From assembly GCF_054482595.1 (NCBI RefSeq), contig NZ_CM137008.1: a stretch of DNA of 64,000 bases; one strand, written 5' to 3'. Below the pieces are notes generated by a model. It did no database searches. It worked only from the letters and a program-made list of their open reading frames with translations, and was not told where the DNA came from. The position numbers were made by a program, and so were the translations under genes. Positions 15,788-59,068 of this stretch are shown one piece after another. Each line of letters starts with the position of its first letter. Position 1 is the first letter of the stretch.

Positions 15788-16016
15788 CGACTAAAAGCCT
15801 CTTTGCGTCACATTTTTACAACAATTATTGCAGAGAAGATTAATGCCATTGGAATGAAGAGAGTAACGAATGGTTAAACTGGCTAACCCGAATGACGAAA
15901 AATTCTGGAAAACAGCACGCAATTTCGTCAGGTGATTATTTTCGTCCCTAAGGAAACCACATAGGATGCTCACGGGTGCCTGAGACTTTCTGTTTTCAGG
16001 CTAACCGGGAATCAGA

Positions 16017-16061
16017 AAGACGAAGGCCCCGACCGATATTTCTATCAACCGAGGCCAACGA

Positions 16062-16072
<11 letters not shown>
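16017..16072 (-). ncRNA. sokB: sokB antisense RNA of the hokB/mokB locus; position inferred, boundaries approximate
   Basis: Placed antisense to the mokB translation-initiation region by analogy with hok/sok architecture; no independent sequence recognition. Confidence 0.35.
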
Positions 16073-16269
<197 letters not shown>

Positions 16270-16684: not shown

Positions 16685-16748
16685 CTTCCGATGTAGACCC
16701 GTATTCTTCGCCTGTACCACGGGTCGGTTTTAGTACAGGCGTTTTCTT
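16685..16748 (+). ncRNA. rydC: RydC small RNA (Hfq-dependent, pseudoknot-forming)
   Basis: 64 nt CTTCCGATGTAGACCCGTATTCTTCGCCTGTACCACGGGTCGGTTTTAGTACAGGCGTTTTCTT matches the RydC sequence as I remember it; ends in hairpin plus U-tract. Confidence 0.8.
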
Positions 16749-49436: not shown

Positions 49437-49464
49437 ATGCTCTGGATAAGGATTATCCAATTCT

Positions 49465-49500
49465 AAAAAAAAGCCCGGACGACTGTTCGGGCTTGTCTTT
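49465..49500. terminator. Bidirectional intrinsic terminator shared by ydbK (+) and micC (-)
   Basis: Hairpin gcccggacgactgttcgggc flanked by A8 upstream and ttgtcttttt downstream. Confidence 0.6.
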
Positions 49501-49574
49501 TTATATGTTGGAAAATCAGTGGCAATGCAATGGCCCAACAGAAAATAAAATCTGTGACAATAAAGGCATATAAC
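49466..49574 (-). ncRNA. micC: MicC small RNA (porin-mRNA repressor)
   Basis: Minus strand reads GTTATATGCCTTTATTGTCACAGATTTTATTTTCTGTTGGGCCATTGCATTGCC...GCCCGAACAGTCGTCCGGGCTTTTTTT, matching MicC as I remember it; lies between ydbK and ompN. Confidence 0.8.
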
Positions 49575-49801
49575 CCGCGCAGAATAACGTATAGAAAATT
49601 AAAAGTATAATTTTTATTTTGTATGTATTATCTTCGATACATTCACCAGACTTATTATCATTTCAGAGGAATTATTTGATTAAGGTTTTACTTAAGGCGT
49701 AACAAATGATATTTATCAGCTAACTGAACTTCTCCTTTAGGATGTTTTCACTCCCCGAAATGGGGATAAAAGGCAAATAAAATAACTAAAGGATTTATTC
49801 A

Positions 49802-54382: not shown

Positions 54383-54505
54383 CAAAAAAAAGCCGACTCA
54401 TCAAAGTCGGCGTCGTACGAATCAATTGTGCTATGCAGTAATTCAAAAAAGGAAGTAAGACAATATGGAGCGCAACGCCCATCGCTTGACGTTGCATTCA
54501 CCTGC
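54383..54505 (-). ncRNA. fnrS: FnrS small RNA (FNR-activated)
   Basis: Minus strand reads GCAGGTGAATGCAACGTCAAGCGATGGGCGTTGCGCTCC...GCCGACTTTGATGAGTCGGCTTTTTTTT, matching FnrS as I remember it; terminator hairpin 54392-54411 plus U8. Confidence 0.8.
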
Positions 54506-57091: not shown

Positions 57092-57655
57092 TCAACGACT
57101 GCGCTTAGCGTGGCGCTCCCAGTTTTCTTGCTTCGCCTGCGCCGTTTTACGTAGTGCGACGTAACACGCCCCGCTGCCGCCATGATGCGGTAGCGCGGTG
57201 CAATATGCCTGAACATCATCAAATTCGGTCAGCCAGCGCGCCACATAGCTGCGGACAATATTGGCATGCGATTTATCATCCCGCCCTTTACCATGAATAA
57301 TCAGCACGTTACGCAAACCATCCGCCAGGGCTTGTTGAATAAAACTGAACACCATTTTGCGGCACTCTTCCACCGGCTGGCGCAAAAGATTCAGGCTCGC
57401 CTGTTGCGGATATTTACCACTGCGCAGCTTATCCAGCACCCCATGTTGCAACCCTTCCCGCCGAAACTCCAGCGGCTGACTTAGTGGGATAATGTCGAGA
57501 AATCCGGTAGTGAGGAAATTATCAAGCTGCAGCGTGTCGATACGCTGTGGCGCACGTTGGTTACGCGTGGGATGCCAGTGGACATCGGTAGCACGTTTCA
57601 GCGGCTGGACATCTTCCATGGCGTCAAGAAACAGCGATTTGTCGTCAAGGTTCAT
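57092..57655 (-). CDS. smrA: Smr-domain DNA endonuclease SmrA
   Basis: 187-aa ORF with C-terminal Smr domain. Confidence 0.85.
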   Translation of the reverse strand: MNLDDKSLFLDAMEDVQPLKRATDVHWHPTRNQRAPQRIDTLQLDNFLTTGFLDIIPLSQPLEFRREGLQHGVLDKLRSGKYPQQASLNLLRQPVEECRKMVFSFIQQALADGLRNVLIIHGKGRDDKSHANIVRSYVARWLTEFDDVQAYCTALPHHGGSGACYVALRKTAQAKQENWERHAKRSR

Positions 57656-57881
57656 GTTACATCCTCCCGCAATTAAGAGCGCGATATGATAACCAGACCG
57701 GGTCGGTCCAACAACGTATTACCCAAAATTCCAGTAATAAGTTCCAAATGTTGCCGATATTTTAAGCAAAATGCTTATGCATGATTATTCATTCACGATA
57801 TTAATAATGTAACTTATATTTTCGTGAAATCTGTCACTGAAGAAAATTGGCAACTAAAGGTTAAAACCGTTATAACACAGT

Positions 57882-57976
57882 CACCGGCGCAGAGGAGACA
57901 ATGCCGGATTTAAGACGCGGATGCACTGCTGTGTGTACTATAGAGTCTGGCGGATGTCGACAGACTCTATTTTTTT
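57882..57976 (+). ncRNA. mcaS: McaS (IsrA) small RNA
   Basis: sigma70-like promoter TTGGCA-N18-TATAAC (57846-57875), transcript ACCGGCGCAGAGGAGACAATGCCGG...TAGAGTCTGGCGGATGTCGACAGACTCTA plus T7; matches McaS as I remember it. Confidence 0.75.
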
Positions 57977-57984
57977 ATGCAGTT

Positions 57985-58893
57985 TTAACTTTGCAGATAG
58001 CCGCATTCTCGCCGGAATTGCGTGATTAATGACGCGGTCAGTGGTGTCTGGCGACTATCACGCCGCTGAATCAAATAATAGGCCGCTTTCGGTAAAATTT
58101 CGCTAACCGGCAACATCACCAGCCCCTGTCCGTGCAAGGGATCGCAGCCCATTTCTTCAGGCAGTATGCTGAGAAAATCGCTTTTTGCCACCAGACTGAT
58201 ACAGGCTGAGAACGTCTCGCAGACTACACCGACCTGTGGCGTTTGCGCCTGATCGTCAAGCAATTCACTCAACTGTTTGTAGTAGCTGCCGTGTGGCGTC
58301 GGCATTGTCCAGCTGTAATCCAGTAACTGTTTGATCGAACGGGCACCAATGGCGGGGTGTCCCGGGCGGCAAAAGATCGCGAATTGCTTTTCCAGTAATT
58401 TCTCAAAAGTAAATTCGTGGTCGTACGATCCCTGATAATAGGTATTGATGGTGAAATCCAATTCTCCCTGACGCAATTCATTAATCATCGACACCAGTTG
58501 CCCTTCCATAATGCGTACTTTTACCTGCGGATGCTGCTGATGAAAACGAGATATGACAGCTGGCATCAGACTGCGGGAAATACTGGCCCCCATGCCGATA
58601 TTAATCTGCCCTGCCAGTTGCCCTTGTCGTTGGCGAATATCCTCTTGGGCTGCGCGCAGCTCTTCAAGAATAAGACTGGCGTGCTGATAAAAACTTTCAC
58701 CGGCATCAGTTAACGTCACGCCTTTACTACGGCGAAAAAAGAGTTGCGCCGCTAACCCTTCTTCCAGCTCCTGAATAGATTTACTCAGTGCCGGTTGCGA
58801 CATATTCAACATTCGGCTCGCTCCGCGAATGCTGCCCTGACGAGCCACTTCAACAAAAGCCCGAATTTGATGAATTTTTACCTGAAAAGCCAT
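57985..58893 (-). CDS. abgR: LysR-family regulator AbgR
   Basis: 302-aa ORF with N-terminal HTH (GSIRGASRMLNMSQPALSKSIQELE). Confidence 0.9.
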   Translation of the reverse strand: MAFQVKIHQIRAFVEVARQGSIRGASRMLNMSQPALSKSIQELEEGLAAQLFFRRSKGVTLTDAGESFYQHASLILEELRAAQEDIRQRQGQLAGQINIGMGASISRSLMPAVISRFHQQHPQVKVRIMEGQLVSMINELRQGELDFTINTYYQGSYDHEFTFEKLLEKQFAIFCRPGHPAIGARSIKQLLDYSWTMPTPHGSYYKQLSELLDDQAQTPQVGVVCETFSACISLVAKSDFLSILPEEMGCDPLHGQGLVMLPVSEILPKAAYYLIQRRDSRQTPLTASLITQFRRECGYLQS

Positions 58894-59068
58894 GACGCCA
58901 CCGATAACCGTTATTTATCAGACCAAAGAAACTGGCATCTACTTTAATGCAGATGATTGTGTCAGGGTAATTTATGAACGGTTAAAACTGTGAAAAATCA
59001 GTTAGTGATAAGTAAAAACTATCGCTACGTGAACCGGGTCACACTTTTTACTGATGACGGGAAAGGTT

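Follow-up and report, generated by a model that had tools for sequence, protein, structure and literature searches.

The spacer between smrA and abgR raises the question of what kind of gene it holds. Read as plain letters, it offers a promoter, a hairpin followed by a T-run, and a short reading frame that starts within the putative transcript and runs on through the hairpin. These elements could belong to a small regulatory RNA, to a small protein or to an RNA that serves in both capacities. The analysis was carried out on a stretch of 64,000 nucleotides, referred to here as the window, and all coordinates are given on its numbering (Table 1). With a probability of about 0.95, the feature is the mcaS (isrA) gene, producing an RNA of about 94–95 nt, and the reading frame that opens at 57901 is not a gene.

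Table 1. Coordinates, strand and basis of the features discussed at the mcaS locus
Feature	Coordinates	Strand	Basis
smrA (ydaL), left neighbour, divergent from mcaS	57092..57655	-	
Candidate cAMP-CRP site, CGTGA-N6-TCACT, centre -52.5	57823..57838	+	sequence; putative
-35 hexamer, TTGGCA	57847..57852	+	re-read from sequence
-10 hexamer, TATAAC; 18-nt spacer; 6 nt to A at 57883	57871..57876	+	re-read from sequence
mcaS (isrA, IS061) small RNA, 94 nt	57883..57976	+	RF00115; equals K-12 b4426
Stem-loop 1, CCGGCG/UGCCGG, 12-nt loop with GGA at 57894-57896	57884..57907	+	Rfam structure, MFE fold
42-codon ORF, judged spurious	57901..58029	+	ATG 57901, TAA 58027-58029
Stem-loop 2, invariant GGA at 57919-57921	57915..57934	+	Rfam structure, MFE fold
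csgD-pairing segment, UGCACUGCUGUGUGUA, McaS nt 40-55	57922..57937	+	complementarity to csgD leader
Stem-loop 3, intrinsic terminator: 10-bp stem, inner 2-bp helix, loop GGA 57952-57954, U7 tail	57940..57976	+	Rfam structure, MFE fold; recovered by RNAalifold
abgR, right neighbour, convergent with mcaS	57985..58893	-	

The McaS/IsrA identity follows from a covariance-model match, a coordinate-exact counterpart among the K-12 ncRNAs and the smrA/abgR synteny. McaS/IsrA is the single strong RNA-family match within the 329-bp smrA–abgR spacer: positions 57883-57978 of the plus strand match the Rfam family RF00115 (McaS/IsrA) at 117.4 bits, the gathering score being 42, with model positions 1-96 of 96 aligned and E = 3.3e-21. 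When the comparison with K-12 is anchored at the smrA start codon (window 57655 = K-12 1405979), the 94 nt from 57883 to 57976 map exactly onto mcaS, b4426, at 1405658-1405751 in the curated K-12 ncRNA record. The gene occupies the smrA–abgR intergenic position, convergent with abgR, and the gene order in K-12 is the same. All three lines agree with the earlier note, which had named McaS (IsrA) between smrA and abgR from the letters alone and had suggested an alignment to K-12 mcaS. That alignment, now run, places the two RNAs one nucleotide apart (95 of 96 nt identical), with A at 57940 where K-12 has G. At the base of the terminator stem, the substitution replaces a G.U pair by A-U, and no functional difference from K-12 is expected of it.

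The mcaS locus is present in 5385 of 5426 complete E. coli genomes, and it is left unannotated in the PGAP-annotated genomes inspected. Gene, position and mechanism are all already known; the finding is correct but ordinary, and the locus matters little beyond its right annotation. Six matches to the smrA–mcaS–abgR spacer fall on E. coli records labelled as plasmids. The same window also contains other RNAs above their Rfam gathering thresholds, namely FnrS (54388-54505, minus strand, 134.8 bits), MicC (49457-49577, minus strand, 125.3 bits), RydC (16685-16748, plus strand, 92.5 bits) and the sok antitoxin RNA of a hok/sok-type locus (15974-16125, plus strand, 109.7 bits).

Species-representative genomes were searched for homologs by means of a pattern built around the stem-3 loop. 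The scan found 13 loci, which belong to Escherichia spp., Pseudescherichia, Citrobacter, Trabulsiella and two unclassified Enterobacteriaceae genomes. The 12 loci with an intact region, as well as the locus of E. coli strain 2900, all score above the Rfam gathering score (69.6–114.5 bits); one locus that runs off its contig end (L011) was left out of this scoring. An invariant core block stands out in the alignment of 16 mcaS sequences, the invariance of the stem-3 loop and of GTACT being there by construction, as both were fixed in the retrieval pattern. The most divergent McaS homolog found is that of Trabulsiella odontotermitis (L017, 2274-2368), at 69.6 bits.

Some E. coli strains carry a rearranged locus. 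In strain MSI001 (L022, around 200-360), an IS5 lies inside mcaS and about the 5' third of the gene is removed, which is a natural knockout of the sRNA. In strain A10 (L003), homology to the mcaS/abgR-start region is lost beyond about window position 57812, and a gene for a SEFIR-domain protein and an IS3 transposase stand in place of abgR.

The start of the transcript is marked by a sigma70-like promoter, TTGGCA-N18-TATAAC, which is present where it had been claimed, the start given for the whole feature (57846) being 1 nt before the -35 hexamer. The TTGGCA hexamer is invariant across the Escherichia alleles and is replaced by CTGGCA, CTGGTA or CTGGAA in other genera, with no -35 aligning in Trabulsiella in the homolog alignment; the -10 hexamer of the homologs reads TATAAC, TATAAG, TATAAA or TATACT. 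A generic promoter/terminator scan flagged neither the promoter nor the terminator of mcaS, because its rules need a T at position 6 of the -10 hexamer and accept loops of up to 8 nt only. The -10 hexamer of mcaS has a C in that place, its outer terminator loop is 11 nt long, and the miss is no evidence against either element.

McaS has been reported to belong to the cAMP-CRP regulon (PMC3634460). The candidate CRP site upstream of the -35 hexamer is kept in the Escherichia and Citrobacter homologs, as TGTGA-N6-TCACT in one Citrobacter, and its centre is atypically placed. Matches to the CRP consensus with up to two mismatches occur at chance frequency (28 in the window, 28.1 expected), and sequence by itself is no sufficient ground for claiming the site; we infer that 57823-57838 is the CRP site of mcaS. 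Elsewhere in the window, a CRP-consensus-like site with one mismatch, CGTGAACCGGGTCACA, is found at 59028-59043, just ahead of the start codon of abgA.

Three stem-loops are given both by the Rfam structure line and by the MFE fold, the last of them being the terminator with its U-tail. The transcript of about 95 nt, the perfect 9-bp hairpin and the T7 described in the earlier note are all at their claimed positions, and the 3' end that it had proposed, 57976, is the exact end of b4426. The hairpin core pairs TAGAGTCTG (57941-57949) with CAGACTCTA (57961-57969), and T7 follows on the 3' side at 57970-57976. In the window allele, an A57940-T57970 pair extends the stem to 10 bp, enclosing a 2-bp helix with a GGAUG loop. 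On paper, the 10-bp stem and U7 of this allele would make a strong terminator.

The folding z-score of the whole RNA is only -2.5, so the case for mcaS rests on homology and covariation rather than on folding energy. RNAalifold recovers stem 3 from the alignment, with three pairs changed on both sides, all of them in Trabulsiella, which means that these compensatory pairs stem from a single lineage. Stem 1 is rebuilt from other sequences in the homologs, as CCCG/CGGG in Citrobacter and as ACCC.CGC/GCG.GGGU in Trabulsiella. From the MAFFT alignment, RNAalifold recovers stem 3 alone, as the variable stem 1 is put out of register by MAFFT. Folded one sequence at a time, stem 1 appears in the MFE structures of the Escherichia alleles, of Trabulsiella and of two of the four Citrobacter, and it is absent from those of the Pseudescherichia group, the Citrobacter MAG and S646. 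[quoted passage not shown]

The hairpin also stands next to the end of a gene on the opposite strand, with the abgR stop codon 9 nt past where the T-run ends, 16 nt away from the stem of the hairpin. It could accordingly be proposed that the hairpin serves mainly as the terminator of the convergent abgR and that the "sRNA" is a promoter-like accident. However, the minus strand carries AUAGUACACAC after the hairpin instead of a U-run, and the 96-nt unit is kept with its promoter across genera, also in genomes that differ downstream of it. The K-12 record lists a separate ncRNA at the locus. The proposal has practically no chance of being right, and it is effectively refuted by the Rfam match, the K-12 ncRNA annotation and the cross-genus conservation.

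With mcaS as the preferred reading, the question narrows to its embedded reading frame and to the Shine-Dalgarno-like sequence in front of it. Four GGA motifs are found in McaS, at 57894, 57906, 57919 and 57952. Three of them do not vary among the 16 aligned sequences, the last of the three (57952) being fixed by the search pattern. The loop-1 GGA (57894-57896) is among the invariant ones, in a loop that is otherwise hypervariable, and it is predicted to be exposed, with a mean P(unpaired) of 0.77, and of 0.76 for GGAG. The Shine-Dalgarno-like look of this motif is explained by the resemblance to ribosome-binding sites that is typical of CsrA sites.

In published accounts, McaS has four GGA motifs, of which two are functional, and two CsrA are bound (PMC10729762, PMC4098024, PMC10339803). 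Disruption of the 5'-most GGA impairs CsrA binding most, and this motif overlaps a flhD-pairing site, according to a later paper that cites Jorgensen 2013 for it (PMC10729762). The Shine-Dalgarno sequence that the earlier note had assigned to the ATG at 57901 is therefore real as a sequence but not in its supposed role: it is the conserved loop-1 GGA, the principal CsrA site according to that source (PMC10729762), and not a ribosome-binding site. Genome scans call for the same caution, since the apparent "Shine-Dalgarno" of an ATG within an sRNA can be a GGA motif to which CsrA binds.

The reading frame itself depends on which allele of loop 1 a genome carries. Complete E. coli genomes fall into two mcaS allele classes, K-12-type and strain-2900-type, whose loop 1 reads GCAGAGGAGACAATG and CACCAGGACCCCAGG, respectively, with 10 of 14 positions different. 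In the strain-2900-type allele, the ATG is replaced by AGG and the loop-1 GGA is kept, so there is no ORF. This ATG-less allele is found in approximately 1461 of 5275 E. coli genomes (~28%, from identity bands) and the ATG is retained in ~72%. The remaining E. coli genomes are K-12-type, some of them with single SNPs that keep the ATG, among which 57909 T>C (L020/L021) and 57899 A>C (L019) are common. A 43-nt megablast search for ATG-bearing genomes returned 2386, an under-count because single SNPs break the 28-mer seed, and for this reason the allele estimate is taken from the identity bands.

Since loop 1 holds both the main CsrA site and a published flhD-pairing site, the two alleles could differ in their targets, through flhD activation or CsrA affinity, and the AUG close to the GGA in the K-12-type allele might let the 30S subunit compete with CsrA. 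This idea is tentative and rather unlikely to be correct. In ~94% of genomes, the flhD leader has an identity of 95% or more to that of K-12, and this survey of overall identity showed no obvious flhD change matching the alleles.

Across the wider alignment, the ATG is found solely in the K-12-type allele. The aligned codon is AGG in the six non-K-12-type Escherichia sequences, ATA in three Citrobacter and AGT in the fourth, and the aligned triplet is TGC in the remaining four sequences (Pseudescherichia group, Trabulsiella), where the alignment is offset. Judging from these sequences, the ATG of the ORF is a lineage-specific substitution on the 3' side of the loop, at the top of stem 1. Premature in-frame stops interrupt the frame in six homologs, at codon 4 in E. 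albertii, at codon 6 in ESNIH1 and Trabulsiella, and at codon 8 in three Citrobacter. Trabulsiella has an ATG of its own at nt 18, which opens a 42-aa frame running in another frame through the invariant block; with a different frame and no peptide similarity, it is ruled out as a case of conservation.

In the window, the ORF is present as had been stated, with its ATG at 57901 and 42 codons, and the argument that it cannot fit a transcript of about 95 nt is borne out. The frame does not stop until 53 nt after the U-run, and an RNA of 94–96 nt provides 25–26 sense codons from the ATG without an in-frame stop. The last 45 nt of the ORF are antisense to the 3' end of abgR. The optimum spacing between a Shine-Dalgarno sequence and a start codon is ~5–9 nt. 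Here, the GGAG–AUG spacer is only 3 nt, and the predicted fold leaves the U and G of the AUG with a P(unpaired) of ~0.27 and the next four nucleotides with ~0.06, mostly paired in stem 1. In this model, the initiation context is poor.

That McaS also encodes a functional 42-aa or truncated peptide, as coding dual-function RNAs of the SgrS/SgrT type do, is extremely unlikely. The ATG does follow a GGAG that lies in an open loop, and it is kept in the K-12-type alleles, including the SNP variants inspected, but more than a quarter of E. coli genomes and all other species lack this start codon, the spacer is short and the start codon partly paired. The part of the peptide that is conserved mirrors the nucleotide invariance of the csgD-pairing and terminator segments. 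As the stop codon is outside the transcript, translation of the 94-nt RNA would be non-stop. Non-stop products are tagged by tmRNA and then degraded. Among the proteins that co-purify with IsrA are S1 and some others of the ribosome (PMC4824073), a point in favour of coding; against it, the 42-aa peptide has no Pfam or NCBIfam match, no CDS is annotated at the ORF in any record inspected, and no report of a McaS peptide was found in the literature searched, where "dual function" stands for base pairing plus CsrA titration.

The comparison with the established coding sRNAs points in the same direction. SgrS/SgrT, Spot 42/SpfP and RyhB/RyhP are, like McaS, short Hfq-binding RNAs with an ATG-initiated frame. 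However, their ORFs are wholly inside the transcript, whereas the stop of the McaS frame is outside and its start is not conserved. Coding dual-function sRNAs are recognized by an ORF within the transcript and by a conserved start and frame, and McaS shows neither. Peptides have been reported for sRNAs of this class, RyhP being one example (PMC5331693).

Translation on a longer RNA is a separate proposal. In K-12-type strains only, occasional readthrough of the terminator could produce an RNA that allows low-level translation of the ORF, as a young lineage-specific micropeptide or as noise of no conserved function, and this RNA may act in antisense on the abgR 3' end. Some degree of leakage is known from the terminators of Hfq-binding sRNAs, and this general leakiness speaks for the proposal, as do the intact ORF of the K-12-type alleles and its antisense overlap with abgR. 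Nevertheless, it is very unlikely, given a terminator that looks strong on paper and a start codon that is poorly placed and partly structured. Moreover, loop 1 is reported to be occupied by CsrA (PMC10729762), and the sole within-allele substitution seen in the hairpin, A versus G at 57940, keeps the pairing yet would be non-synonymous in the ORF (V14I).

The 42-codon ORF is thus a chance by-product of one allele and not a gene, because its stop is off the transcript, its ATG is limited to one allele, its frame is broken by stops in homologs, the U and G of its AUG are mostly paired and its product matches no protein family. The earlier note had called it most likely spurious, and the absence of the start from the alternative allele and from other species, together with the stops in six homologs, supports that judgement. 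As far as sequence can tell, the comparison of alleles settles the coding question without an experiment. Conservation taken alone leaves room for a young lineage-restricted peptide, as ~72% of E. coli genomes retain the ATG.

The mcaS segment 57922-57937 is a perfect 16-nt Watson-Crick complement of the K-12 csgD leader, from -96 to -81; none of 500 shuffles reaches 16 nt, with a shuffle maximum of 11. It coincides with the invariant alignment block, its last nucleotide and the adjoining GTACT being fixed by the search pattern. The stem-3 loop GAUGUCG (57953-57959) is a 7-nt complement of the flhD leader that is not significant alone, and the segment-restricted duplex energies for flhD are within the shuffle range in these crude tests. 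Unrestricted RNAduplex predictions of McaS with the csgD and flhD leaders were rejected as over-extended and biologically meaningless; the longest perfect complement against shuffles and segment-restricted duplexes were used instead.

It has been described that McaS pairs with csgD and flhD (PMC3634460), and flhDC is reported to be activated through two pairing sites. Pairing with csgD leads to Hfq- and RNase E-dependent cleavage of the csgD mRNA (PMC6061853), and McaS is a class II Hfq-binding sRNA (PMC9765468). Stem 2 has been reported to mediate csgD pairing and to be needed for RNA polymerase binding, and the stem-3 loop to mediate flhDC activation, with extended flhD pairing models poorly supported by phylogenetic analysis; the RNA also forms particles with S1, ProQ, PNPase and the RNA polymerase core (PMC4824073).

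A mode of action can be proposed from these elements. The sigma70-type promoter, reportedly cAMP-CRP-dependent, would start transcription at 57883, and the intrinsic terminator would end it at about 57976, giving a 94–95-nt RNA with three stem-loops. With Hfq, the segment 57922-57937 would pair with the csgD 5' leader far upstream of the ribosome-binding site, leading to RNase E cleavage and lower curli production. Loop 1 and the stem-3 loop would activate flagellar synthesis by pairing with the flhD leader, and the exposed GGA motifs, chiefly that of loop 1, would bind CsrA as a decoy and relieve the repression of targets such as pgaA. The identity, the architecture, the conservation pattern, the csgD complementarity and the non-conservation of the ORF come from the present analysis; the dependence on Hfq, CsrA, CRP and RNase E, as well as the biofilm and motility phenotypes, come from the literature. 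McaS is a known dual-action riboregulator that combines Hfq-dependent base pairing with CsrA titration. It is the textbook sRNA linking the Hfq and CsrA regulons, switching E. coli between motility, curli and PGA biofilm.

Among known systems, McaS resembles in its decoy function the CsrB/CsrC-type sponges (Rfam clan CL00106, which includes McaS), where GGA motifs in loops likewise titrate CsrA (PMC10729762). The scale is different: McaS has four GGA motifs and two CsrA bound, against 22 motifs in CsrB (PMC10339803, PMC10729762). McaS is also an Hfq binder that pairs with mRNAs; neither property is known for CsrB or CsrC (PMC10339803, PMC10729762). Within the genus, the strain-2900-type E. coli allele and the orthologs of non-coli Escherichia have the promoter, the 3' two-thirds, stem 1 and the loop-1 GGA in common with the window. 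In strain 2900 (L002, mcaS at 2607-2702), smrA is replaced on the left by an AraC-family regulator and an HlyD/MFS efflux operon, with the break in homology to the window at about 57777, ~105 nt upstream of the transcription start. McaS/IsrA/IS061 of K-12 is the same gene, which shares with the window its flanking genes, promoter hexamers, 5' and 3' ends and three stem-loops, together with all four GGA motifs and the csgD-complementary segment.
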